A program made the translations under genes and the position numbers. A stretch of DNA of 64,000 nt from an uncultured Gammaproteobacteria bacterium (lineage in GTDB: Bacteria; Cyanobacteriota; Vampirovibrionia; LMEP-6097): assembly GCA_964551135.1 (NCBI GenBank), contig CAZKAT010000003.1, forward strand, positions 1,514 through 65,513, read 5' to 3'. The number at the start of each line of letters is the position of its first letter. The stretch's first letter is position 1. This document shows, piece by piece, positions 29,965-47,888 of the stretch. Under the pieces are notes generated by a model that saw nothing but the letters and a program-made list of their open reading frames with translations, did no database searches and had not been told where the DNA came from.

Positions 29965-32717
29965 AGACTCGATTCAAACAACGGCAACTTACCTATATCA
30001 AGCGAACCATCTTCACTAATAGCATCAGTAATATCGTGCTGATCAAGTTGCTTTTTAGTCATACCAAGCTTGCGGCTACGCTGTGCCTGAAGCTGATTAT
30101 TAATCGCTTTCGCTCTATCCAATACTGACTTCGGCAAACCTGCTAAGCGAGCGACTTCTATACCATAGCTGCGATCAGCTGAACCTTCCACTACTTTATG
30201 CAAGAACTCTATTCTAGTCTTAGCATTAGGACTATCATTTTCTACTACTAATACTTGATAGTTTTTAATACAAGGATATAACCTGTCTAAATTTGCAAGC
30301 TCATGATAGTGAGTTGCAAATATAGTGCGCGCTTGAGTAGTCTTAGCAATATGCTCAACTATAGACCAAGCAATCGCTACACCATCATAAGTACTAGTAC
30401 CTCTACCGATCTCATCTAAAACTATAAAACTTCTATCAGTCATAGAATTAATTATGGTCGCTGTCTCGTTCATCTCCACCATAAACGTAGATCTACCAGA
30501 TGCTAGATCGTCACTTGCGCCAATACGCGTGAAAATTCTATCTACTAATCCAATACATGCTTTAGTCGCTGGCACATAGCTACCCATCTGCGCAAGCAGG
30601 ATGATAAGAGCATTTTGGCGCATATAAGTACTTTTACCTGCCATGTTGGGACCAGTTAAAATCATCAGCTTACATTCCCTGCGAAAATCGTCATCTGCTG
30701 CGTTACGCTCGTCCCTCGAACTGCTCATTGACGTTCTAGTCAACTCCGCGTTCTCGGGACTCGCAAGCCTTGCATCTGAACGATTTTCGGCGGGGATATT
30801 TCCCACACCGAGCGTTATATCATTCGGCACAAACTCTCCAAACTTAAGCTTCTGCTCAAGAACAGGATGTCTTCCTTCTTCGATATACAGTTCATGAGAA
30901 TTAAGAAGTTCAGGACGCTTATAGTTTCTTTCTAGTGCAAGTAATGCCATAGACAGTAAAGCATCTAGCTGTGCGACTTGCAGTGCTATTTGTTTAATAA
31001 TCGGTGACTTAATTGCAAGTGATTTACGTAAACCAGAATAGATCTCATATTCTAAAGCATTACGCCTAGATTCTGCATGAGTAACTTTCTCCTCAAACTC
31101 AATTAGTTCCTCGGTTACAGCTCTGATGGTATTCACCATGGTCTGCTTGATCACATAGTGCTCTGGAAGTTTCTTTTCATTAAGTCTAGAGGTCTCGATA
31201 AAATAACCGTGTACCTTATTAAAACTTACTTTAAGGTTTTTAATGCCAAGCTTCTCTCGCTCAGCATCTTCAAAGTTCTTCATCCAAGCTTCAGAATCTT
31301 CTACTAAAGAAATCAATTCATCCAACTCTGCATTATAACCATGTTTAAGAATATTACCCTCGGTAACAGCAAGAGCCGGATCATCTTTCACCGCATTATC
31401 CACTACTCTAATAAAGTCCAAAGCTTGCTCTGGAATATATTTCAAGCTTGTAAGCAAACCAGATTGCAAACCCTGCATCAAAGCAGAGAGCTGCGTCACT
31501 ATAACCATTGAATGTTTCAATGCCACAGCTTCGCGTGGACTGATAAGTTCACTTGCAAGTCTATTAGAAAGCCTATCTATATCATAAGTCTGTGCTAGTA
31601 AATCCTTAAGTTCATTACATAGACTTGGATCTGAGACCAGTTCAGTAACAGCATCCAATCTAGCGTTAATAGCAGGGATATCATATAGTGGTTGCTCCAT
31701 CCATGCACGCAGTTTACGTCTGCCAAGTTTCGAAGACGTGCGATCTATCGCTGAGAAAAACGAACCAGCACTATTACCTCCCAAGGTTTTATTAAGCTCA
31801 AGATTGCGGCGAGTGCTTGCATCAAGCATCATATACTCACTTACATGATAGCTACGAATTTGATCAAAATTCTTAGCTGAGTTATTAGAGAACTCTGCTC
31901 CTTGAGTTTCTTTCAGATATTCAATAATCGCACCAGCAGCACGAAGTGCATAGCCATTGCTTTCTGTGCCCAAACTATCCTCAATCTGTTTCACTGAATT
32001 AAGCTTGAAGAGATCTTCTATATTTTGCACCGCAAGCTTAGTATCAAAATTCCGGTAATTAAATCCACTCAGATAAAATTCAATATTCAACTGATCTAAA
32101 TTAAACATCAATTCTTCTTCTCTGACGATTTGTCCTTCTAGCTTGCCGGCAGGTTTAGATGGCACTATGATTTCTGAAGCATTAATTCTTGCTAACTCTT
32201 GTTCTAAGTATTCAGCTTTAATTTCAGTAAGATAGAACTCGCCTGTAGAGATGTCTGCATAAGCCAAACCATAATGAGAATATGGAGTAGTCGAGTAAAT
32301 CGCGAGAATAAAATTATTCTGATATGAATCTAGAAACTCGAGATCATTGATAGTGCCAGGAGTGAAAACTTTAGTAATCTCGCGCGGCACTAAACCCTTG
32401 CAAGTTTTAGGGTCAGCCATCTGCTCAGCGATATAAACCTTATAATTGCGCTCGAGTAATTTAGCGACATAAGGTCTAATAGCGCGTGCTGGCACTCCTG
32501 CCATAGGAATACGCCCACCTGGATAAGTACTTTCAGGACGTCCGGTTAGAGTTATTTCCAGTTCTTTAGCAATAGTCTCAGCATCTTCAAAAAAGGTCTC
32601 ATAAAAATCCCCCATTCTAAATAAAAGTACTGCTCTACCTTGAAGCCTAAGCCTGGCATTGAGGTATTGCTGCATTACTGGAGTAAAATTAGAGAAATCT
32701 TGAGTTGGGGTCGACAT
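29961..32717 (-). CDS. mutS: DNA mismatch repair protein MutS (carries an in-frame repeat-element insertion)
   Basis: 918 aa; N-terminal mismatch-binding region (MQQYL...GDFYE) and ABC ATPase Walker A GPNMAGKST; about 33 extra residues immediately N-terminal of the Walker A are encoded by repeat element C. Confidence 0.9.
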   Translation of the reverse strand: MSTPTQDFSNFTPVMQQYLNARLRLQGRAVLLFRMGDFYETFFEDAETIAKELEITLTGRPESTYPGGRIPMAGVPARAIRPYVAKLLERNYKVYIAEQMADPKTCKGLVPREITKVFTPGTINDLEFLDSYQNNFILAIYSTTPYSHYGLAYADISTGEFYLTEIKAEYLEQELARINASEIIVPSKPAGKLEGQIVREEELMFNLDQLNIEFYLSGFNYRNFDTKLAVQNIEDLFKLNSVKQIEDSLGTESNGYALRAAGAIIEYLKETQGAEFSNNSAKNFDQIRSYHVSEYMMLDASTRRNLELNKTLGGNSAGSFFSAIDRTSSKLGRRKLRAWMEQPLYDIPAINARLDAVTELVSDPSLCNELKDLLAQTYDIDRLSNRLASELISPREAVALKHSMVIVTQLSALMQGLQSGLLTSLKYIPEQALDFIRVVDNAVKDDPALAVTEGNILKHGYNAELDELISLVEDSEAWMKNFEDAEREKLGIKNLKVSFNKVHGYFIETSRLNEKKLPEHYVIKQTMVNTIRAVTEELIEFEEKVTHAESRRNALEYEIYSGLRKSLAIKSPIIKQIALQVAQLDALLSMALLALERNYKRPELLNSHELYIEEGRHPVLEQKLKFGEFVPNDITLGVGNIPAENRSDARLASPENAELTRTSMSSSRDERNAADDDFRRECKLMILTGPNMAGKSTYMRQNALIILLAQMGSYVPATKACIGLVDRIFTRIGASDDLASGRSTFMVEMNETATIINSMTDRSFIVLDEIGRGTSTYDGVAIAWSIVEHIAKTTQARTIFATHYHELANLDRLYPCIKNYQVLVVENDSPNAKTRIEFLHKVVEGSADRSYGIEVARLAGLPKSVLDRAKAINNQLQAQRSRKLGMTKKQLDQHDITDAISEDGSLDIGKLPLFESSL
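30692..30790. repeat. Repeat element C (about 97 bp), in frame within mutS
   Basis: About 90% identical to 38316-38412 in gatB (shared core catctgctgcgttacgctcgt...cattgacgt...agtcaactccg...actcgcaagccttgcatctg); GC-rich relative to flanks. Confidence 0.8.
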
Positions 32718-37057: not shown

Positions 37058-37882
37058 GTGAATACAAACTCTAGGCGTGATGCTGATTATGATTTCTCAC
37101 GCCGTTCTAGAATAGATCCTATTTTCAGTCAGACACAAAAACCAAAAAGTTTCATTGCTGATAATGGTGGAAGTTTTATGGGGGATTTACACAATCCTCT
37201 CTTAGAAAACAGTATACATGCCCCTGCTAGATTAGATTACAGACCTAAATTTACTGAATATGGCTTAGATGATTTAATGCATCCAGAAACAATAGACAAA
37301 GCAAAAGACTGGACTGAAAAAATTACCGACTTCTTTAAGATCGCAGGTGATGCTACAAACAAAGTATTCTCACAACTCGGAGATATAACTAATGTTGGAA
37401 TTAATAAAACAGCAAGCAATCCTATGATCGTTACTGCTGGTGCAGCAATCGTAGGATTAATAGCTGGACTTAAAGCTGTAAAAAATATTCTCCATGGTAT
37501 TAAAGTAGCAATGGATCCTAAAAGTGATCCTAAACTAGGCTGGTTGCCACATGAGATATTAGGTATATTACAGGGTGGTTTATTCTTTGGTCTAACTTCT
37601 TCATTCTTTGGTAAGAGAAATTTCCTTACTGAATTCCAAAATGGTAAGCCAGTAGTAAAAGTCAAATCAATTATAGGAGTAGGCGTAGCTGCCCTTGGTT
37701 TAAGTGTCGCAATGGCACTCGCTAAGAGCACTTCAGTATTCCGCAAAGTTCCATTAATAGGACCTGCTATGCAAGAAATCAGTGAAACTGTATTTGGAGC
37801 AGCTAAAGAAGTAACTGTACCAACAGAAGACAATCAGAATGCTGCTGGACACGGAGCTGCTTTACCTGGAATGCCAGGCTAG
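37058..37882 (+). CDS. Hypothetical membrane protein
   Basis: 274 aa with several Gly/Ala-rich hydrophobic helices; start uncertain (GTG 37058 or ATG 37178 with GGTGGAAG upstream). Confidence 0.4.
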   Translation: MNTNSRRDADYDFSRRSRIDPIFSQTQKPKSFIADNGGSFMGDLHNPLLENSIHAPARLDYRPKFTEYGLDDLMHPETIDKAKDWTEKITDFFKIAGDATNKVFSQLGDITNVGINKTASNPMIVTAGAAIVGLIAGLKAVKNILHGIKVAMDPKSDPKLGWLPHEILGILQGGLFFGLTSSFFGKRNFLTEFQNGKPVVKVKSIIGVGVAALGLSVAMALAKSTSVFRKVPLIGPAMQEISETVFGAAKEVTVPTEDNQNAAGHGAALPGMPG

Positions 37883-39444
37883 AGTAATTTAGCAAGTATC
37901 TCATTTACCATTGCTGGCGAAGCTTTACCCTGCGTAAGTTTCATAACCTGTCCCACAAAAAACCCTTGAATCTTTGCGTTACCAGATTTATATTGTTCTA
38001 CTTGTTTTGGATTAGCAGAGATCACTTCTTTAATAACAGTCTCCAAAGCTCCTGTATCAGTAATCTGTGCTAGACCTTTATCATCAATTAACTTCTGCAC
38101 TGAACCACCATTAACCAAAAGCTCATTAATAATATCGTTCTTAGCAATATTATCCGAAATAATGCCTTGATCTATCAGTTTAATCATCTCAGCTAGTAGA
38201 GTTGCTGTAAGTTTAGTTTCTCTGATACTGAGTTTACTCTCGTTGAGGTAAGCAGCTACAGGACCTACCAACCAATTAGCAGCCTTAACAGCATTAGAGC
38301 CTATCCGCAAAGTCCCATCTGCTGCGTTACGCTCGTTCCTCGGACTACTCATTGACGTCTCAGTCAACTCCGTGTCCTCGGAACTCGCAAGCCTTGCATC
38401 TGGGAGCTTTTCGGATAGGCTCTTAATAACCTCTTCAAAATAGATCGCCGTATCCACTTCATCTGTAAGCGTAGTCGCTGTATCTTCATTAATATTAAAC
38501 TCTGCTATATATCTACTACGCTTCTGTTGCGGTAATTCTGGCAGAGAAGTTTTAGCTGTATCAATTTGCTTTTGGTTTAAAGTGAGAGGTAATAAATCTG
38601 GCTCAGGGAAATATCTATAATCATGAGCATCTTCTTTCGATCTCATAGAATGGGTTTTACCAGTGTTCTCATCGAAAAGTCTAGTCTCTTGAACCACAGT
38701 ACCAGCTTGATCTAATATTTCTGATTGACGTTTATATTCATACTCTATAGCGCGAGAAATAGATCTAAAGCTATTAACATTCTTGATCTCAGCGCGAGTA
38801 CCGAACTTCTCAGCACCAGGTTTATTCAATGAAATATTAATATCACATCTAAGCGAGCCTTCTTGCATATTGCCATCACATACTCCTATATATAGAAGTA
38901 TTTTACGCAACTCTTTCACGTAAGCCACAGCCTCATCAGCAGAACGTATATCAGGCTCTGAAACTATCTCTATAAGCGGCGTTGAAGCACGATTAAGATC
39001 TACTAGTGAATAATCTGAACCATGTAATCTCTCAGCACCTGAGTGTACTAACTTACCCGCATCTTCTTCCATGTGAATTCTTAATATGCGCACATCTTTA
39101 GAACCAATATTTAGCTTGCCATGATTACAGATAGGCTTATCGTATTGAGAGATCTGGTAACCCTTAGGTAGATCTGGATAGAAGTATTGCTTGCGATCGA
39201 ATTTAGAATTAAGATCTATCTGACAACCTAATGCTAGTCCAGCTTTAATCGCATACTCTACTGCGCGCTCATTCAATACTGGTAAAACTCCTGGATAACC
39301 CATACATACTGGGCAGGTATTCGCGTTCGGCTCTGCTCCAAACTTAGTAGAACAAGAACAAAATAACTTAGACTCAGTTCTGAGCTGAGCATGGACTTCT
39401 AGTCCGATAACGATTTGGTATTTTAATGCAGTTTCTGTTGCCAT
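37879..39444 (-). CDS. gatB: Asp-tRNA(Asn)/Glu-tRNA(Gln) amidotransferase subunit B (carries an in-frame repeat-element insertion)
   Basis: N-terminal YQIVIGLEVHAQL and CSC...CPVCMGYPG motifs; start set at ATG 39444 (MATETALKYQ...) matching canonical GatB N-termini; the track start 39522 would extend into palindromic element B. Confidence 0.9.
   Translation of the reverse strand: MATETALKYQIVIGLEVHAQLRTESKLFCSCSTKFGAEPNANTCPVCMGYPGVLPVLNERAVEYAIKAGLALGCQIDLNSKFDRKQYFYPDLPKGYQISQYDKPICNHGKLNIGSKDVRILRIHMEEDAGKLVHSGAERLHGSDYSLVDLNRASTPLIEIVSEPDIRSADEAVAYVKELRKILLYIGVCDGNMQEGSLRCDINISLNKPGAEKFGTRAEIKNVNSFRSISRAIEYEYKRQSEILDQAGTVVQETRLFDENTGKTHSMRSKEDAHDYRYFPEPDLLPLTLNQKQIDTAKTSLPELPQQKRSRYIAEFNINEDTATTLTDEVDTAIYFEEVIKSLSEKLPDARLASSEDTELTETSMSSPRNERNAADGTLRIGSNAVKAANWLVGPVAAYLNESKLSIRETKLTATLLAEMIKLIDQGIISDNIAKNDIINELLVNGGSVQKLIDDKGLAQITDTGALETVIKEVISANPKQVEQYKSGNAKIQGFFVGQVMKLTQGKASPAMVNEILAKLL
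38316..38412. repeat. Repeat element D (about 97 bp), in frame within gatB
   Basis: About 90% identical to 30692-30790 in mutS; encodes ARLASSEDTELTETSMSSPRNERNAADG, paralleling ARLASPENAELTRTSMSSSRDERNAADD in MutS. Confidence 0.8.
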
Positions 39445-39468
39445 ATATGGAGATTTTATCATATTAGT

Positions 39469-39577
39469 CGTCATCGCGAGGAGCGAGCGCAGCGAGTGAC
39501 GTCGCGATCCAGACGAATGCACAATATTTATGACTGGATCCCGACGTCGTCCACTTCGTGGACTCCTCGGGATGACG
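39469..39577. repeat. GC-rich palindromic element B (RPE-like), 109 bp
   Basis: Terminal inverted repeats CGTCATCGCGAGGAG (39469-39483) / CTCCTCGGGATGACG (39563-39577) and inner GGATCCAG/CTGGATCC; same family as element A; sits between gatB and nfi, and the nfi ORF terminates inside it. Confidence 0.75.
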
Positions 39578-40289
39578 GAACTAAAATATCTCCTACTTTT
39601 ACAAGCTTCTTTACTTCCTTGGAATACTGATCCGCTAACCTGGTTGCCTTGGGTATTCTATAGCCATCACAAAATTTAGTAATTATTTCTAAACTAGTTG
39701 GATGATCGATAAGATATCCAGGTGAAATAAAGACCGGATTACATTTAGCTTTAGTTCTGAGTACCGTACCAATAAGTTCATGGCTTTTAGGATCAAGAAG
39801 TTTGGAAGTGGAGAATCGTTCTTCAGCAAGCTTAGAATATTCACCATAGAGTAAAGATTTAGCGCAACCAATGGTCGGTTTATTTATCATCAAACCCATA
39901 TGCGAAGCAATTCCCAAGCGCCTTGGATGAGCGACTCCCTGTCCATCAAAGATATAAATATCAGCATTAATATTATGCTGCTCTATCAGTGCTAAATATA
40001 GAGAACATTCGCGAAAGCTCAGTAAGCCTGGAATATAAGGGAACTTAATCTCACCCACATAGTAATAACGATTAATAATTTCAAGCTCAGGGAAACTAAA
40101 AAGAACAGAAACAGCATAAGCTTGTCCCTGAGCTGTTCCAGCAGAAATAAACCTAGGATTAAGTTCTAAAGCTAAATCAAAAGCAGCTATAGTCTTGATC
40201 TCATCTAAAGAACCAAAAGAATTTTTTAAAACAATTTGTGAGGTCAATTGTTTTTGCAATTGGATTGCATCTTGAGGAGAAACTAGCAT
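39528..40289 (-). CDS. nfi: Endonuclease V
   Basis: 253 aa; AAFDLA, YIPGLLSFRE, HPRRLGIASHMG and PTIGCAKS motifs typical of endonuclease V; the last about 17 codons lie inside palindromic element B. Confidence 0.8.
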   Translation of the reverse strand: MLVSPQDAIQLQKQLTSQIVLKNSFGSLDEIKTIAAFDLALELNPRFISAGTAQGQAYAVSVLFSFPELEIINRYYYVGEIKFPYIPGLLSFRECSLYLALIEQHNINADIYIFDGQGVAHPRRLGIASHMGLMINKPTIGCAKSLLYGEYSKLAEERFSTSKLLDPKSHELIGTVLRTKAKCNPVFISPGYLIDHPTSLEIITKFCDGYRIPKATRLADQYSKEVKKLVKVGDILVPSSRGVHEVDDVGIQS

Positions 40290-40326
40290 TAAGCGTTAAT
40301 TATAGCTATTTGCTATTATATTATGT

Positions 40327-41124
40327 ATGCTTGGAATCTATATCACCGCTGGCTACCCAAATACTCAGAGCACTATTAAAGCTCTCAAAATTCTTGACGA
40401 GGCTAATGTTGATTTAATAGAACTTGGAGTTCCTTTCTCTGATCCTTTAGCTGACGGTCCAGTAATTCAAAAAGCTGCATATCAAGCACTGCAGCAAGGC
40501 ATGAACCTGGATAAAATTTTTGCTCTATTAGAAGAAGCTCGCAGCCAAGGTATCAAGGCAAGTTCAGGCAAAGGCTTAAACAATGTAATCTTGTTCTCCT
40601 ACTATAATCCACTCTATGCTTATGGCTGGGATAAGTTAATCAAACAATGTCAAGCACATCAAATACGCGGCGCACTAATTCCTGACTTACCTGTAGATGA
40701 AGCAGAAGTTCTATCTAAAAAATTTAAAGATGCTGGATTAGATTTAATTCTACTAGCAGCTATAACCAGTACTGATGAGCGCTTGCGTAAGATCTATGAT
40801 CTATCATCACCATTTATTTACTTAGTTAGCCGCATTGGTATCACTGGAAGCGACAGTGATGTTCAATCCTTGAAAGGTAACAGCTCTACTAGCGTTGACC
40901 GTCCGCTCTCAAGTGTTATTAGCAAGCTTAAGTCTTTTGGTAATAAGCCTATTGCTTTAGGTTTTGGTATAGATTCACGCACCAAAGTAGAAGATGCTTA
41001 TAAGACAGGAGCAGATATGGCAATAGTAGGAACCAAGGCGGTAAGAGTGCTTGAAGCCTGCGATGAAAGCTTGAATTGTTTTAAAGAATTTATTAAAGCT
41101 CTAAGAGCACCAGTAGAGGTATAA
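40327..41124 (+). CDS. trpA: Tryptophan synthase alpha chain
   Basis: 265 aa; ELGVPFSDPLADGPVIQ signature; no trpB adjacent. Confidence 0.85.
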   Translation: MLGIYITAGYPNTQSTIKALKILDEANVDLIELGVPFSDPLADGPVIQKAAYQALQQGMNLDKIFALLEEARSQGIKASSGKGLNNVILFSYYNPLYAYGWDKLIKQCQAHQIRGALIPDLPVDEAEVLSKKFKDAGLDLILLAAITSTDERLRKIYDLSSPFIYLVSRIGITGSDSDVQSLKGNSSTSVDRPLSSVISKLKSFGNKPIALGFGIDSRTKVEDAYKTGADMAIVGTKAVRVLEACDESLNCFKEFIKALRAPVEV

Positions 41125-41126
41125 TA

Positions 41127-41606
41127 GTGGACTTCTCACCTTATCAATTAATTGATTATTCAGCTGAATATCATGACGAGCTGATAGTGTTTCTAGATCA
41201 AGGTTATAAGTTTGTTGGTTACACTAGTTTAGAATTAGATACTTTAGATGATGATCTGTTGAATATAGAAGAAGTTTATGCTCAGCCATCTTGTTTTAAA
41301 TTATTACTAAAAGGCGAAAGCATTATAGGCAGTGTCGCTGTAAAAATTAGTGCTAATGAAGCAGAACTGAAAAGAGTCTTCGTTAATCCCAGTCTCCATG
41401 GTCAAGGCATAGGTAAGAATCTCTCACTCTGGGCATTTGACTATGCTAAAGAGCAAGGTTGCCATACTATGCATATCTGGTCTGGCACCCTCTGTGAAAC
41501 AGCCCATAGCCTCTACGAATATTTAGGCGCAACAAACACTCAAGAGCAACGTTTTATAGGTGGGCAGGATGATTGCTATGAATACTACTTCATAAAGAAG
41601 CTTTAA
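41127..41606 (+). CDS. GNAT-family N-acetyltransferase
   Basis: 159 aa; acetyl-CoA binding motif RVFVNPSLHGQGIGKNL. Confidence 0.75.
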   Translation: MDFSPYQLIDYSAEYHDELIVFLDQGYKFVGYTSLELDTLDDDLLNIEEVYAQPSCFKLLLKGESIIGSVAVKISANEAELKRVFVNPSLHGQGIGKNLSLWAFDYAKEQGCHTMHIWSGTLCETAHSLYEYLGATNTQEQRFIGGQDDCYEYYFIKKL

Positions 41607-41696
41607 ACATAGTCTTAATCAGGGAATGATATAATCAATAGCAACTAAGGTATTTAGTCTGTAAACTGACAATTTGGTAAACCCAATAATTATAAG

Positions 41697-41797
41697 ACGC
41701 AGTTATTTTGTCATTATTCGAGGCAGTTTGCTCCTGAGCGACCGGAGTGTATATGAACATACATGAGGATCGCGAAGGAGCAAACTAACGAAGAAGA
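41697..41797. repeat. Palindromic element E (about 100 bp), upstream of ssrA
   Basis: Imperfect inverted repeat TTTTGTCATTATTCGAGGCAGTTTGCTCCTGAGCGA / TCGCGAAGGAGCAAACTAACGAAGAAGAATGACAAAAG; termini resemble the GTCAT...GAGG ends of elements A and B. Confidence 0.6.
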
Positions 41798-41823
41798 ATG
41801 ACAAAAGAACAAGTCTTCTTTAT

Positions 41824-42228
41824 GGGGGCGTATAGCTTTGACAGGGGTCAGAGATGGTAAAACGCGAGTCCAGGTAGCCTAGGTCCTGGTAAAGCCAAGG
41901 CAAAACATAAGTGTAAATGAATTTGAAGTAACTGTAGCGCAAGCTACACCTGCTGAGCGTTTCGCTCAAGCAGCTTAGTCCCGACATACTGCGGACACTT
42001 CCTCGCTGCTTAACGGCTAACCGGTTAGGATTGTGAGGCACTAAACAGGTCAGTGCATGAATCATACTTTGATAAGTTTAGTATGAGGAGTAAAGATCAT
42101 AAGCTTAGAACCCGTTGAGTGTCTATGCTCTTAAGCACGGCAACAGCTTAGATTTATAGACTACACTCGTAGTGGTTTATCGTTGAAAACTTTTGGACGC
42201 GAGGGGCAGTTCCTCGCCGCCTCCACCA
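41824..42228 (+). ncRNA. ssrA: tmRNA (transfer-messenger RNA), standard one-piece form
   Basis: 5' GGGGGCG pairs with 3' CGCCUCC (7-bp acceptor stem with G3:U70 alanine identity pair) followed by encoded ACCA; 5' GGGGGCGUAUAGCUUUGACAGGGG resembles the tmRNA tRNA-like domain; T-arm GCGAGG/CCUCGC; internal open frame ending ...AQATPAERFAQAA then UAG, consistent with an Ala-Ala-terminated tag. The overlapping 81-aa minus-strand ORF is considered spurious. Confidence 0.75.
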
Positions 42229-42288
42229 TTTTTAATTAAAATATCCAAAATCTAGACATAATCATCAATTTTAGATAATATTACAATT

Positions 42289-43602
42289 ATGAGTACCAAT
42301 ATTATAAATGGAACTTTTATTCAAAGCCCAATGGTAGAAAGTCCTACCAAACCAAATTCTTATTTAGGTAAACGAATAAGAAAGATAACGCCACCTCTTA
42401 AATTACATCATAGACAATTACATTTATCTACAAAAGACTTGTTAAAACTTAGTCTTGAAAAACTCTTTAAAACAAATCCCAATCCAGATGTTGACCAAAT
42501 TTCTGCAGCCATAGACCCAATATTAGTTCCAAGCGAATATGAGCAAGCTTCTAATTCACAACTAATTTGCAAACTATGTGTGCATCGTATTAATGATGCT
42601 TGGGATATTTTTCAAAAATTAAAATCTGATTTGAAACTTGAAAATCCTCAAATAGACTTGGAGTTTGCAAAATCTATTCATGAATCTTATATAACATTAG
42701 TTGAGTCAGAACAAGATCCATTGTCAAACGAAGAGCTAGCGGAGCTAACTCTTAAGGTTATTAAAAAAACTAAATTCATGATAGATCCACGTATTTATAA
42801 AGCTATATTTGGAAACAATGGTAGCTTTAATGTCAAATCTTTTTTGATTCCAGTAACAATTCATGATCAAGCAATTAGACCTGATTCTTCTGAACACAAT
42901 GATTTAAAAAGATTTTTTAAAAATTATGATATAGATATCTCTAATATAGAAATTCCTCCACTGATTGAAACTGATACAGCGTCTGAAGTTGCAGGTCATT
43001 GTGCCACAAATTATATAATTTCTTACCCTCTTGATTCATCTAAAAAGTTATATAGGGAAACTATTGAAACACTTAGAGACTCTTCATTAAAAACACAACT
43101 ATTGTATGAAATAAATAACTATAGTAGCAGTGTTCTATCACATGAACTAACTCATTATTTCCTTAAAGTTAAAGTGCCAAATATTAGGTCTACAGAACCA
43201 ACAGATTTAAACGCAAAAATCTATATTTCGCCTGAAAATTATATTAATTGTGTTATACCTTCAAATGAAATGGCTCGTGAAATGATTGCATATACTATGA
43301 GCTTGTTTACTGATCCAATTTTTTCTATTGCTACAATGCTCGAAAGTAAAGATTCTTGCTTAGAACTTAGCAAGCCAATAATAATAATTTGCAAGGGATT
43401 GGCTTTAGGGTCTCTAGCAAAGGATCAAGCTGAGTTTGATGCAGATTTACAACTCTTACGCAATATGACTGGGATTAACTATATGATTTATATGTTTCAT
43501 AGACTAGGTCAAGAAAAATTTGATCAGTTTGTTAAAACAGTCCAAGAAGTTTTTAAATCTATTTCAGGGCAATTGCTAGCTCAGACACAAGCTCAAAAGT
43601 AG
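42289..43602 (+). CDS. Hypothetical protein with HExxH motif (possible zinc metalloprotease)
   Basis: 437 aa; SHELTHYF HExxH motif with a downstream Glu (PSNEMAREM) that could be a third ligand; otherwise unrecognised. Confidence 0.4.
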   Translation: MSTNIINGTFIQSPMVESPTKPNSYLGKRIRKITPPLKLHHRQLHLSTKDLLKLSLEKLFKTNPNPDVDQISAAIDPILVPSEYEQASNSQLICKLCVHRINDAWDIFQKLKSDLKLENPQIDLEFAKSIHESYITLVESEQDPLSNEELAELTLKVIKKTKFMIDPRIYKAIFGNNGSFNVKSFLIPVTIHDQAIRPDSSEHNDLKRFFKNYDIDISNIEIPPLIETDTASEVAGHCATNYIISYPLDSSKKLYRETIETLRDSSLKTQLLYEINNYSSSVLSHELTHYFLKVKVPNIRSTEPTDLNAKIYISPENYINCVIPSNEMAREMIAYTMSLFTDPIFSIATMLESKDSCLELSKPIIIICKGLALGSLAKDQAEFDADLQLLRNMTGINYMIYMFHRLGQEKFDQFVKTVQEVFKSISGQLLAQTQAQK

Positions 43603-43643
43603 TAACTAAAGCAAGACTGGATTGTATCTAGCTAGGATCCTAG

Positions 43644-44843
43644 TTAATTTGATGCAGCAGCCAATTGTTTTTGTTTTTGATAATAAAGCGTTGCCATAAC
43701 TTTGGCACCATTATGGTCATTCTCTATAGCTATAGGACTATCACTTAATCTATGAAGTTGAGAACCTTTAAACTCCTCAAGGAAAGCTTTTTTATTCTCA
43801 TCATTCGATAAAACATTAGTCAGTGGACTTGCTTGAACAATAAATTGAGCTTGTTGAATTTTAGAATTAGCTTTTATTACATAAGCTAAAACTTTCGCTA
43901 CAACAATTTGAATAGCTTGAAATACTATATCGTCTGTCTGTGGATTAAAGACTTGAGCCATACCATATTTATCACCATTAGTACCTATCTCAGAAGCTTG
44001 TATCTTATGCCTATCAGTTTTCAAATATTCCTCTAATTGTTCAATCAATTTAGGAGTATTAATTACACTTCTTAATTTAGCTAAAGCCACGTCTCTAGAT
44101 CTATTTAAGAGACTAACTATATGCTTTGCAATCGCAAGCAAACCTTCTCGCTCATTAGTTGGCGAGAATAATTCACCCAATTTCACAGCAACTTTTGGTA
44201 ATAGATCTTCAAAAACACCTTGAGGCTTGAATTCTGCATCGTAAAGATTGTGTTTAATTATTCCTTTATTGAAATCATTTTTTTCTTGATTAACATCTTG
44301 ACCCTCTGTTACAGTAAATTTCCCTGAACCAAGATCTATGAAAGCAAGATTCTGAGCAACTTGTATACTTGGAATAGATAAACCTGCAAAGAGTTTAGCA
44401 ATATTTGCACCAATAACTTTAATCTCTAAACCAGCTGCTTTAACACAATCTGATAAAGTTTCTAATGTCTTGCTTAGCGAAGCTTGAAAAACATCTTCAA
44501 ATTTTAAAAGATCTTGAGAATAAGTAGCATTTGGATCCACAAAAAATAATGTAGATGGTCTTTCTAATTTATGAAATTCATAATCAAGATTGGTTAAATT
44601 AGTTAAAGATTGTTTTAATCTAGTGTTCTCTCTATTTAATATCACAGCATTATAAGAACTTGGCTGAACAGATTTTTGGGGATCTCTTGGCAACTCTGAA
44701 TAATTTTGAATAGTTAAATCACCCTTAGTTTTCTTAGCAGAAGGCGGTTCATGCAAAACACAAGCTTTAAAAGACAAGCCTGCTGGTTGCGAAGTATGGG
44801 TACCGGTAATAAAAGACGTTTGCACGACATAATAGACTAGCAT
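43644..44843 (-). CDS. Hypothetical protein (399 aa)
   Basis: ORF only; AFIDLGSGKFTV loosely resembles a phosphate-binding loop of actin-like/Ppx-GppA ATPases but the context is unconvincing. Confidence 0.4.
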   Translation of the reverse strand: MLVYYVVQTSFITGTHTSQPAGLSFKACVLHEPPSAKKTKGDLTIQNYSELPRDPQKSVQPSSYNAVILNRENTRLKQSLTNLTNLDYEFHKLERPSTLFFVDPNATYSQDLLKFEDVFQASLSKTLETLSDCVKAAGLEIKVIGANIAKLFAGLSIPSIQVAQNLAFIDLGSGKFTVTEGQDVNQEKNDFNKGIIKHNLYDAEFKPQGVFEDLLPKVAVKLGELFSPTNEREGLLAIAKHIVSLLNRSRDVALAKLRSVINTPKLIEQLEEYLKTDRHKIQASEIGTNGDKYGMAQVFNPQTDDIVFQAIQIVVAKVLAYVIKANSKIQQAQFIVQASPLTNVLSNDENKKAFLEEFKGSQLHRLSDSPIAIENDHNGAKVMATLYYQKQKQLAAASN

Positions 44844-44975
44844 GAATTACCTGTAAATAACAATCTATGCTGCATTGCCACTATTCATCTTTCTACATAA
44901 TATTCCCAGCATTTGTCTAATGTCTAGCTATGACCCAATTACTTAACCTATTAAATCAAACAACATAATTCATAT

Positions 44976-47888
44976 GTGATAAAATCCACATTCGAAATGT
45001 TGATTAAACCACAATTAATTTTTCAAGCACCAGATAAGGATTTACCAGGCGTAAATCCTAAATCTGGTAATACCAATATTCCAAGTAATTCTTCTTTGCA
45101 ATTAAGACGTAATCTAGCAGCAACGTTATTAACTTATGAAGATACCAGACGTGCCAAATTTTTTGGAGCCATTAATGGAACTCCTCTGGAGTCTTATTTA
45201 CCTAAAGTAAAGTCTCCAATAGAAAAATTCCTGAAAACTAATCCCAGTGATAAATTAATTCAGGCTTGTGCTACAGATTTGCGTAATGGTAGTAGGGAAG
45301 AAGCTATATTAAAAGAAACATTGTCTATTTACGAATCTTTATCCAAAGCCAAGATAGATGATCGCTTTATACCTGTGTTTCAGTCTTTAGTCCGTGCAAA
45401 TGAAGACAATAAACAATATTCTAGACCTCAATTAGTAGAAGTAGTAATAGTTCCTCTATCAAGAATACAAAATTTTAGTGATAAATTACTAACCAAAGCT
45501 ACTAATGATTTAAGTTATTTAGTTGGTAAAAATGGACAAGATGAATCTAAGTTGGCTGAATATATAAAAGTAGCCCAAAATATAGCTGGATACAAACCTA
45601 CTGCTGACATTCGGAATCTTTACAACAATATCCTTAATGCTGTCTGTGCTACTAATGCAGAAGAGTTGAGATTAACAGCAGATTTAAATCGATTCTTCAA
45701 ACGACTTTCAAATTTATCGATATCCTATGATGTTCAAACTGAATTAGAGAAACAAATTCAATATACTGGTACTCAATTTGGATCAGTACCAAATAGCATA
45801 GATAAATATTTATTATCAGTTATAACTTCTTTTATAAACTTTAATGATCGCCTAACTATGTTTTCATCTGATCGTAGAACTCAAGTCGTAGCACATTACA
45901 ATGAATTAGTTCAAATTACAAAAGATTCTGGCATGCATTTGGATACTCTTAATGATTTATTTACAAGAGGAATAAAAGACGATTTTATAACTGAAGAACT
46001 GGATATTGCAAATTCACTTTATCGATCTTCTTTACATTCCACTAAAAGTGGTCTAGCTGATTTAATTGCATATAGAGGAGAGTCTGCTTTAGAGTTAAAA
46101 CGAAGCCTTCGTGACTTGTATCTTAAAGCAAATGACAAAGATAATGCAGTAGCTAAATCGCTGATCTCTAATTTCAACTCGCTTGCTTTATACTGTCCCA
46201 CTAATTGGGTGTCTGATCCTGGTTCATCTACTTTATATGAAGTACCCAACTTAAAACCTTTATTACCGATAGTTAAATGTTTCGACGCCTTAATCGATTC
46301 TAATAATTTCCGTAACAATACTGTTCATATTTTAACTGAAAGATTCAAAGATTCACTGGATGAAAGTCACTATCCATCAGATCTTGCTTATAACAAATTC
46401 GTTAGTGCTATCAAAGCAAAAGGTTATGATGCAGCTCAATTGAAGCGTCAATTAATATTGATTACTGCACATGATATTTTAATGCACAATATCTCTAACA
46501 CGGGAAAGGTACCAGATTGGAAATATTTTAGTGAAATATTCCATAATGGTGATCTTCCTTTTCGTCATGGTACTCCAGAATATGATCAATGCCTGAGAGA
46601 AAGCCAAATTATTATGAGAGCTAGTTTCAATGCTCACTATGGTTTTGGAGCTTTAGCAAACGATGCCAAAGGTTGGAAAGATTCCATCCTGGCAAGATTT
46701 GGAAGAGATGTTGCATTTCAAGAAGTACAGGCACCTCGTTGTAAAGATGGTAATGCTTTTCCTGGAATGGGTTATGTGATAACTGGTCTCAATGATGATT
46801 TTTTACGTATTCCTGATCCAGCAAGAGAGATGAATGGTGATGAGGCATATCAAGACTTTTTAGCAAATTATCCTTTCTTAGCTGCTGTTGCTGATGATAT
46901 AAGTTCTACTCAGTTTACATTTCTTAGGGGAATGGTGGTAATAACTAATACAAAAGATAAATATTGTTTGCCAGATCGTAATCATCAAATGATACCTTAC
47001 TCTCTCGTTATTTATAATGATCATTTTCATAATAATGGTTATGATATTGCTTTCTTAGTTCCTTCAAAAATACTTTTAGATAAAATGAAACCGACCTTAT
47101 TCTCTATCTATGATACAGATGCGCCTGCTACAATACCCCAAAATATTAATGATGTACCACTTGATATTGAGAGTCTTAGAAAAGAAGCTCATGACATGAA
47201 TGCAAGCATTCTTAGTTTAGGTTCATCATCTAATATTGCAGGCTTAAGTAATGCTTGGGAGCCTAATAGAAGACCATATTGGGCATGGGAAGCTGAAAAA
47301 AATCAAGATTGGCGAGACCTTGATGGACATAAACATAAATGGTTTGCGATGGCACGTCATGAACGGTTTTGGACCCCAGAGAATGAAGAAGAAATGAAAC
47401 CTTTTCAAAGAGTACATAAAGAAGTTTATGGAGTTGCAAAATCATTATTTGATAATTTAAATTCATTTAAATTATTTCTCTCAGCTTACAAGCATGGTTA
47501 TTTAGGTAATTTTGCTAGCAAAAAAAGTTCAGCTACAAGGGATGAATCAATAAGAACGTTTGCTAGTTCAGACAGTTTTCAAACCAGTTCTGACAACGAT
47601 ATGATGTTTGATCAAGCATATCTACTAAGGCAAGCAGCTTTAAAAAGAAAAGCCACAAATTTCCCTAAATTAGTTGTTTATGATACTTATAAATGGTCTT
47701 CCGAACCTATTGAAGGTTTTGAGCTTGATTTAGCTAATATGCAATTAACTTGGAATGGACAGACTCATCAATTAAATTTGGATAAACCAACAGCTACAGA
47801 TAGATCCTTATGGAGAAGAGTATTTAACCAATTTACAGGTTTGAATTATGATTTTAGATTTTATGAAAAGGGTTTAAATCAACATTAA
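44976..47888 (+). CDS. Large hypothetical protein (970 aa)
   Basis: Long uninterrupted ORF without recognisable motifs; no signal peptide apparent. Confidence 0.45.
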   Translation: MIKSTFEMLIKPQLIFQAPDKDLPGVNPKSGNTNIPSNSSLQLRRNLAATLLTYEDTRRAKFFGAINGTPLESYLPKVKSPIEKFLKTNPSDKLIQACATDLRNGSREEAILKETLSIYESLSKAKIDDRFIPVFQSLVRANEDNKQYSRPQLVEVVIVPLSRIQNFSDKLLTKATNDLSYLVGKNGQDESKLAEYIKVAQNIAGYKPTADIRNLYNNILNAVCATNAEELRLTADLNRFFKRLSNLSISYDVQTELEKQIQYTGTQFGSVPNSIDKYLLSVITSFINFNDRLTMFSSDRRTQVVAHYNELVQITKDSGMHLDTLNDLFTRGIKDDFITEELDIANSLYRSSLHSTKSGLADLIAYRGESALELKRSLRDLYLKANDKDNAVAKSLISNFNSLALYCPTNWVSDPGSSTLYEVPNLKPLLPIVKCFDALIDSNNFRNNTVHILTERFKDSLDESHYPSDLAYNKFVSAIKAKGYDAAQLKRQLILITAHDILMHNISNTGKVPDWKYFSEIFHNGDLPFRHGTPEYDQCLRESQIIMRASFNAHYGFGALANDAKGWKDSILARFGRDVAFQEVQAPRCKDGNAFPGMGYVITGLNDDFLRIPDPAREMNGDEAYQDFLANYPFLAAVADDISSTQFTFLRGMVVITNTKDKYCLPDRNHQMIPYSLVIYNDHFHNNGYDIAFLVPSKILLDKMKPTLFSIYDTDAPATIPQNINDVPLDIESLRKEAHDMNASILSLGSSSNIAGLSNAWEPNRRPYWAWEAEKNQDWRDLDGHKHKWFAMARHERFWTPENEEEMKPFQRVHKEVYGVAKSLFDNLNSFKLFLSAYKHGYLGNFASKKSSATRDESIRTFASSDSFQTSSDNDMMFDQAYLLRQAALKRKATNFPKLVVYDTYKWSSEPIEGFELDLANMQLTWNGQTHQLNLDKPTATDRSLWRRVFNQFTGLNYDFRFYEKGLNQH

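Follow-up and report, generated by a model that had tools for sequence, protein, structure and literature searches.

A one-piece tmRNA gene with a GGCRG T-loop and a divergent tag segment in a Melainabacteria-like genome

The window, a 64-kb (64,000-nt) stretch of DNA from a metagenome, contains at 41824-42228 a sequence that an earlier note, made from the letters alone, had called a tmRNA with an atypical T-loop and a long tag. Is an RNA whose T-arm departs from the standard model in this way a genuine tmRNA gene and, if so, what kind of genome carries it, what does its T-loop represent, and how does its tag compare with those of its relatives?

The gene and its genome

We searched the whole window with Rfam cmscan, which gave RF00023 tmRNA at 41824-42228 (+) with 93.6 bits (gathering score 47, E 3.5e-35). 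The alignment covers model positions 1-374 of 374 and is not truncated, so that the boundaries are identical to those of the earlier call and the gene is full length. It is the sole above-threshold Rfam match in the window. The one-piece topology put forward in the earlier note also passed the covariance-model check with Rfam, as no permuted family was matched and the gene is colinear, with the 5' acceptor strand first and the T-arm and CCA at the 3' end. The canonical acceptor stem can be read directly from the sequence, as had been claimed: GGGGGCG (41824-41830) pairs with CGCCUCC (42218-42224), giving G3:U70, and the discriminator A and encoded CCA occupy 42225-42228. This stem, including G3:U70, is invariant in the six clade sequences. 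RNAalifold predicted 106 pairs from the six clade tmRNAs, 32 of which stay paired despite changes on both sides; the compensatory pairs are located in helix 2 and the pseudoknot stems, and the fourth T-stem pair occurs as GC, AU and GU. The features of the locus are as follows.

41702..41810, no strand: imperfect palindrome of 110 nt, single-copy, between the stop of a GNAT gene (41127-41606) and the ssrA 5' end (-55 kcal/mol, z -8.7)
41824..42228, + strand: ssrA, mature one-piece tmRNA of 405 nt (RF00023 and clade covariation)
41824..41830, + strand: acceptor 5' strand GGGGGCG, G3 at 41826 (7/7 pairs with 42218-42224)
41831..41842, + strand: D-loop analogue UAUAGCUUUGAC, with A41834-G41835, a 4-nt spacer and GAC (compared with the Rfam consensus)
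41870..41901, + strand: pseudoknot 1, upstream of the resume codon (Rfam alignment; compensatory clade pairs)
41913..41978, + strand: tag frame, GUA at 41913-41915, 21 codons VNEFEVTVAQATPAERFAQAA, UAG at 41976-41978 (alignment with five relatives and the Rfam consensus)
41914..42005, + strand: hyper-divergent segment relative to locus L001 (all 36 differences; 61% identity)
41950..41973, + strand: helix 5 hairpin CUGCU-GAGCG-UUU-CGCUC-A-AGCAG, at the 3' end of the tag frame (Rfam alignment)
41979..42172, + strand: pseudoknot domain PK2-PK4 (Rfam alignment; compensatory changes)
42199..42217, + strand: T-arm, GCGAG/CUCGC with extra pair G42204-C42212 and loop GGCAGUU at 42205-42211 (covarying stem)
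42218..42228, + strand: acceptor 3' strand CGCCUCC, discriminator A and CCA (sequence reading)

The sequence at 41824-42228 is a genuine one-piece tmRNA of a Melainabacteria-like bacterium. The exact TrpA protein of the window is found on metagenome contigs, for example ENA ERZ3430527 NODE_13 (288 kb). Three loci, L017 (MAG Candidatus Caenarcanales, JAJTHA010000118), L032 (MAG Candidatus Melainabacteria, JAPPOW010000158) and L026 (JAYQSH010000005), are syntenic with the window as topA-gatB-...-trpA-ssrA, the synteny being read from topA, gatB and trpA as far as each 8-kb locus covers them. The tmRNAs of these loci and of the metagenome locus L146 are 75-78% identical to that of the window and all four have the same T-arm type, with the D-loop analogue UA(U)AG(C/A)UUUGAC. 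Nucleotide identity in the flanking genes is 66-75%, and protein identity to the relatives is 72% for TopA, 71% for GatB and 54-64% for TrpA. Because of this synteny and the TopA and GatB identity of about 72%, we place the genome near the Caenarcanales/Melainabacteria MAGs; Caenarcanales are placed in Vampirovibriophyceae/Melainabacteria. The one-piece topology had been used earlier as an argument against an alphaproteobacterial (Rickettsiales) origin. That origin is indeed not supported, given the topology and the Caenarcanales/Melainabacteria synteny; however, the T-loop flagged in the same note is itself of the alphaproteobacterial type, and it is topology and relatives that decide the origin, not the T-loop. 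A tblastn search of the 64-kb window with an approximate E. coli SmpB query gave no smpB (best E 0.69).

The T-loop and the D-loop analogue, here and in other genomes

The T-stem GCGAG (42199-42203) / CUCGC (42213-42217) encloses nine nucleotides, GGGCAGUUC, which can be read as a sixth pair, G42204-C42212, around the 7-nt loop GGCAGUU (42205-42211). The stem is present and covarying, and the loop reads as the earlier note had stated, GGCAGUU and not UUCRANN. The D-loop analogue, UAUAG-CUUU-GAC, shows AG where canonical tmRNAs show GG, the canonical layout being GG, a 4-nt spacer and GAC (Rfam RF00023 consensus cuGGaUUCGAC). Both features match the elbow of RF01849 alpha_tmRNA, whose printed consensus has the T-arm CCGGG-GGCgGUA-CCCGG and the D-loop analogue AAAuAGGAUCGAC (AuAGGAUCGAC). 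The loop is thus not idiosyncratic to this gene: GGCRGNN is the RF01849 consensus and widespread, the standard alphaproteobacterial T-loop and a known alternative that is atypical only relative to the standard model. The window gene differs from RF01849 in being non-permuted, in the extra G-C pair of its T-stem and in its Melainabacteria-like genome.

The tRNA elbow is built on the contacts G18-Psi55, G19-C56 and U54-A58, and we know of no solved structure of the alpha-type elbow. We collected 65 unique tRNA-like domains and compared the T-loop with the D-loop analogue in each.

GGCRG T-loops: D-loop analogue AG in 42, AA in 14, GG in 0
UGCRA T-loops: D-loop analogue AG in 5
UUCRA T-loops: D-loop analogue GG in 4

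A GGCRG loop was accompanied by AG or AA in 56/56 unique domains, and no exception occurred across all 65. Within the GGCRG loops, positions 1-5 are fixed, so that the equivalents of C56 and R57 are kept, and positions 6-7 vary freely. As a pattern in sequences, this G to A covariation of the D-loop argues that the elbow contact may be kept in an alternative form. In published descriptions, the Reclinomonas americana mitochondrial tmRNA has GG at T-loop positions 1-2 as in the window, but is two-piece, reduced, organellar and tagless; the Caulobacter tmRNA has G at position 2; and the Dehalococcoides tmRNA has a possible sixth helix-12 pair as in the window and is otherwise canonical (PMC1168896). 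In our literature search no paper explicitly described a GGCRG loop for one-piece tmRNAs, the remarks of PMC1168896 being on Reclinomonas, Caulobacter and Dehalococcoides only.

We scanned one genome per species (approximately 185,000 species) for a T-stem GCGRG/CYCGC around any 9 nt before NNNCTCCACCA. The pattern leaves the loop free, and 17 of the 33 loci obtained have GGGCRGNNC. These belong to Saccharibacteria, Bacillota/Clostridia, Melainabacteria/Caenarcanales and one MAG labelled Gammaproteobacteria; the remaining loci have UUCRAYN or UGCGACU loops with a 6-bp stem. Rfam found a full-length RF00023 tmRNA in all 16 GGGCRGNNC loci scanned; the 17th, with 49 nt of the gene at a contig end, was left out. 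We also scanned metagenomes with the stem left free, using the pattern GGAC-N5-GGGCRGNNC-N5-CNNCTCCACCA, and obtained at least 121 matching loci. As this pattern fixes the loop letters GGGC-R-G..C, their invariance in these loci holds by construction, and the loop was free in the genome scan only. Among the matches listed, T-stems were perfectly complementary in 118 of 121, and the full-length unique domains had 17 distinct T-stem sequences. Also among the matches listed, 47 were full-length one-piece genes and 57 were permuted genes, in which the T-arm and CCA are followed by a 26-100-nt spacer and the 5' acceptor strand; Rfam assigned the permuted loci (L046 and similar) to RF01849 alpha_tmRNA or RF04321.

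Two side observations were made in these scans. The 34-mer of T-arm and acceptor at CAZELI010000060.1, 5851-5884 (the locus at a contig end, L016), is identical to that of the window; the MAG is labelled 'uncultured Gammaproteobacteria' and has a GC content of 0.34, the contig holds 49 nt of the tmRNA gene, and its flank is unlike that of the window. This may be a mislabelled or misbinned relative. Two IMG/VR viral contigs, L164 (2468-2501, -) and L165 (5329-5362), carry an identical permuted tmRNA gene with a 6-bp GGGCAGUGC T-arm of the window type, followed by an 83-nt spacer and GGGGGCGAAAUAGGUUCG; it looks like a phage-borne alpha-type tmRNA.

The earlier note had suggested ARAGORN or Rfam as a check. 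Rfam supports the gene at full length, but ARAGORN reports no tmRNA in the window or in the sub-region, which the T-loop type explains. ARAGORN misses the one-piece GGCRG tmRNAs throughout (all 17 genome-scan sequences, the window and L001), as well as all one-piece loci among the 121 metagenome loci listed, and it also misses every one-piece gene with the UGCGACU T-loop. In our local run it detected GGCRG loops only as permuted genes ('tmRNA*', 41 loci, among the matches listed). Because it accepts this loop in permuted mode only, its silence on the window is not a true negative.

The tag frame and the surroundings of ssrA

We aligned the window gene with five related tmRNAs and the Rfam consensus UAAuU|GCa. 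The alignment places the resume codon at GUA (Val), 41913-41915, in the context UAAGU|GUA, and the tag frame is conserved in all five relatives. The tag, VNEFEVTVAQATPAERFAQAA, has 21 codons and a hydrophobic end, ...AQAA, before the stop UAG at 41976-41978, in agreement with the earlier reading of a frame open for more than 20 codons and ending ...AQATPAERFAQAA. The tags of the relatives have 19-22 residues, and all resume at GCA.

L017: ANEFEVTAVEATPAYALAA
L026: ANNEFEVTAVNTTADYALAA
L146: AKSEFDVVETARKAAPTYALAA
L032: AENTEFTAVEVATTSKLMAA
L001/L002/L040: AETSEFSSEVAYATPASYALAA

Published tags have 8-35 residues, and most resume codons are for Ala, with Gly in some cases (PMC3968760). The long tag had been flagged as noteworthy; it is ordinary for the clade, since the five relatives have 19-22 residues, and lies inside the published range. 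An N-terminal EF motif is common to the window and the Caenarcanales/Melainabacteria tmRNAs. The window is nevertheless an outlier of its clade, with GUA in place of GCA as resume codon and the C-terminus ...ERFAQAA, whereas the relatives end ...YALAA or ...LMAA. A Val resume codon and a ...QAA ending are both rare and could reduce the efficiency of tagging or proteolysis.

The tag is also where the window departs from its nearest relatives. A comparison of the window with L001 over 6.8 kb (37327-44118) gives 36 differing positions, three indels among them, and all 36 lie inside 41914-42005, the 92 nt of tag frame and helix 5. This segment is 61% identical between the two, compared with 51-70% between clade species, and the tmRNA outside it is identical at 313/313 positions. 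The N-terminal part of the window tag matches L017 at 19/22 and L026 at 20/25 positions and the conspecific L001 at 11/28; that of L001 is somewhat nearer to L032 (16/28). Both alleles keep helix 5, that of L001 having its own at the same place (CUUACGC/GCGUAAG). Such phylogenetic incongruence agrees with recombination over short tracts or with allelic classes of long standing, and it suggests, from sequence comparison, that tag modules may be exchanged between near-identical genomes.

The L001 allele is carried by L001, L002 and L040 (three samples), and the window allele was seen in the window only. An 81-aa antisense ORF crosses the tag segment; an exact-sequence look-up with it gave no second assembly with the window allele, and L001 is without a comparable ORF. 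Two Logan contigs end at 41874, roughly one k-mer short of the polymorphic region, which suggests graph branching there. For phage carriage of the window allele, a viral-contig scan with the clade T-arm gave the two unrelated permuted tmRNAs only; a 16-mer scan of viral contigs from the tag was too unspecific, gave chance matches and was discarded. We also considered a diversity-generating retroelement acting on the tag segment and rejected it in view of the three indels and of changes that are not limited to one base type.

The 110-nt palindrome at 41702-41810 is present in conspecific contigs and absent upstream of ssrA in L017, L026 and L032. It may be a leader, may terminate the upstream operon or may have come in as a MITE-like insertion; a promoter and terminator scan gave weak consensus matches only and no terminator. 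Its sequence is unrelated to a palindromic repeat of about 99 nt that occurs twice in the window, at 38316-38414 and 30692-30790 (87% identical). One copy of this repeat lies in frame within gatB, at about aa 370-403 (...KLPDARLASSEDTELTETSMSSPRNERNAADGT...), and in the stretch 38287-38537 the window is approximately 117 nt longer than L017, seen as an alignment gap. The gatB repeat is probably what the earlier note called an RPE-like element, namely a Rickettsia-palindromic-element-like in-frame insertion in a Melainabacteria-like genome.

At the 3' end of ssrA, a sister strain (L039 from 2431 onward; L162 12706-20592; Logan SRR17828886) has at least 8 kb of foreign DNA. The junction core GCCTCCACCA corresponds to 42219-42228 of the window, which represents the empty site. 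Among the proteins encoded by the inserted DNA are a GmrSD type IV restriction enzyme (PF03235/PF07510) and a DUF3987 protein, and no integrase was seen within the part of the L039/L162 insertion that was covered. The insertion is likely a mobile defence island; ssrA is a typical integration site of islands (PMC11915505). Downstream of ssrA in the window (42289-47888 and onward), GC drops from about 0.38-0.40 to 0.31-0.34 over large ORFs of 437 (42289-43602), 399 and 970 aa, for which no Pfam match is on record. We considered whether this low-GC region is an ssrA-integrated island and rejected it: a search of the window for a second copy of the tmRNA 3' end (attR), allowing up to 3 mismatches, gave none, and in the sister strain the island is followed by the same genes. 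For both reasons we regard the region as core flank.

Alternative readings, mode of action and significance

Compared with the E. coli SsrA-type RF00023 tmRNA, the window gene has the same parts: the acceptor with G3:U70, discriminator A and CCA, a D-loop analogue ending in GAC, helix 2, PK1, a resume codon after the UAAGU context, a tag frame with stop, helix 5, PK2-4 and the T-arm. It differs in the T-loop (GGCAGUU, not UUCGAUU), the 6-bp T-stem, the D-loop analogue (AG, not GG), the tag length (21 residues, not 10), the resume codon (Val GUA, not Ala/Gly) and the tag end (FAQAA, not YALAA). We consider it very probable that the locus is a functional one-piece ssrA with an alpha-type elbow, whose tag and helix 5 form one of at least two diverged alleles. 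By analogy to the trans-translation pathway, the tmRNA would be charged with alanine via the G3:U70 acceptor stem and the ACCA end and would enter stalled ribosomes with SmpB and EF-Tu; translation would switch to the internal frame at GUA 41913, and the stalled peptide would receive (A)VNEFEVTVAQATPAERFAQAA and terminate at UAG. The tRNA-like domain would have an alpha-type elbow with G54 G55 C56 A57 G58 (tRNA numbering by analogy), a 6-bp T-stem and the A-G D-loop analogue. As judged from covariation, the G19-C56-type pair would be kept, the G18-Psi55-type contact would become A-G and the U54-A58 pair G-G, so that the fold of the T-loop and the elbow would persist although the m5U54/Psi55 modifications would be missing. 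The tag and helix-5 module would be one of at least two deeply diverged alleles in near-identical genomes, most likely introduced by short-tract homologous recombination through the conserved flanking tmRNA sequence.

The coincidence of several deviations (no GG in the D-loop analogue, GGCAGUU, the GUA resume codon and ...FAQAA), together with the silence of ARAGORN, might be taken as signs of a decaying or non-functional tmRNA whose T-loop, D-loop analogue, resume codon and tag end drifted in a reduced or host-associated genome. We give this hardly any credence, as the same T-loop and D-loop pair is found in five relatives from the clade, recurs in several other phyla and matches the alphaproteobacterial consensus, helices carry compensatory changes, strains do not differ in the tmRNA outside the tag segment, and the window allele keeps its open frame, stop codon and helix 5. 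An acquisition of the tRNA-like domain or of the whole gene from an alphaproteobacterium, or from a phage with an alpha-type tmRNA, would account for an elbow of the alphaproteobacterial consensus type, and two IMG/VR viral contigs do carry permuted tmRNAs with this T-arm type. The viral genes, however, are permuted and in other respects unrelated, and one-piece lineages that are not related to this clade have the same elbow. The window gene itself is one-piece and syntenic, with 75-78% identity to four related loci, each of which has the elbow; this argues for vertical inheritance within the clade and makes a horizontal origin highly unlikely. It is also improbable, if to a lesser degree, that there is no T-loop at all and that the T-arm is a simple hairpin of 7 bp with GCAGU as its 5-nt loop, or carries an unstructured 9-nt loop, in an elbow unlike that of tRNA. 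The MFE fold of the T-arm does have 7 bp and the 5-nt loop (-13.7 kcal/mol), and the RNAalifold drawing of the clade agrees with it. The seventh pair, however, would be G-U in five and G-A in one of the clade members and could form in no more than 12 of the 35 unique T-arms. The fixed GGCRG with freely varying positions 6-7 follows the pattern of canonical T-loops (UUCRA-NN), the counterparts of C56 and R57 are still there, and the D-loop changes in concert with the T-loop; the free positions and the low number of pairable T-arms argue against the MFE fold and for a T-loop-like architecture.

As to the tag difference, a segment of a co-occurring related species might have been stitched in at a bubble of the de Bruijn graph: the source is a metagenome, the window allele is absent from every other retrieved assembly, and the two Logan contigs that end at 41874 point to branching of the graph. 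Such an assembly artefact would need a second organism that is identical over 90 nt upstream and 223 nt downstream and 39% divergent in between, which would also be a mosaic tmRNA, and a further SNP is present in the same region in L002. We regard an artefact as a real though unlikely explanation. A more far-reaching proposal, which we offer as speculation and consider rather doubtful, is that the tag frame and helix 5 (41914-42005) may constitute an exchangeable cassette, with 'NEFEVT...' and 'AE(T/N)xEF...' allele classes that are each common to other species and that persist, or are swapped by short-tract recombination, between genomes which are otherwise identical. In the same proposal, the systematic coupling of a G to A change at D-loop position 13 to a U to G change at T-loop position 55 would represent a second solution to the elbow, which would have arisen or spread in at least five bacterial lineages and would be invisible to ARAGORN in one-piece genes.

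The strict pairing of GGCRG or UGCRA T-loops with an A-G D-loop analogue is a clean natural covariation, usable for testing how the elbow, SmpB and the ribosome cope when the G18-Psi55-type contact and the m5U54/Psi55 modifications are lost. ARAGORN is the tmRNA finder in several common annotation pipelines, and its failure on these genes amounts to a systematic annotation gap in Saccharibacteria, Melainabacteria, some Bacillota and an abundant soil/peat group of tmRNAs of about 355 nt. Where Melainabacteria, Saccharibacteria and some Bacillota seem to be without a tmRNA, the gene may have escaped detection, and the gap may bear on the many genomes without identified tmRNA that are reported in PMC11915505. 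If the cassette proposal is true, the degradation tag would be under diversifying or balancing selection; it might, for example, be adapting together with protease adaptors, or escaping phage or competitor factors by which tagged proteins are recognised. If confirmed on reads, the confinement of all strain-level differences to the tag module would be an unusual case of within-species variation in a degradation tag.
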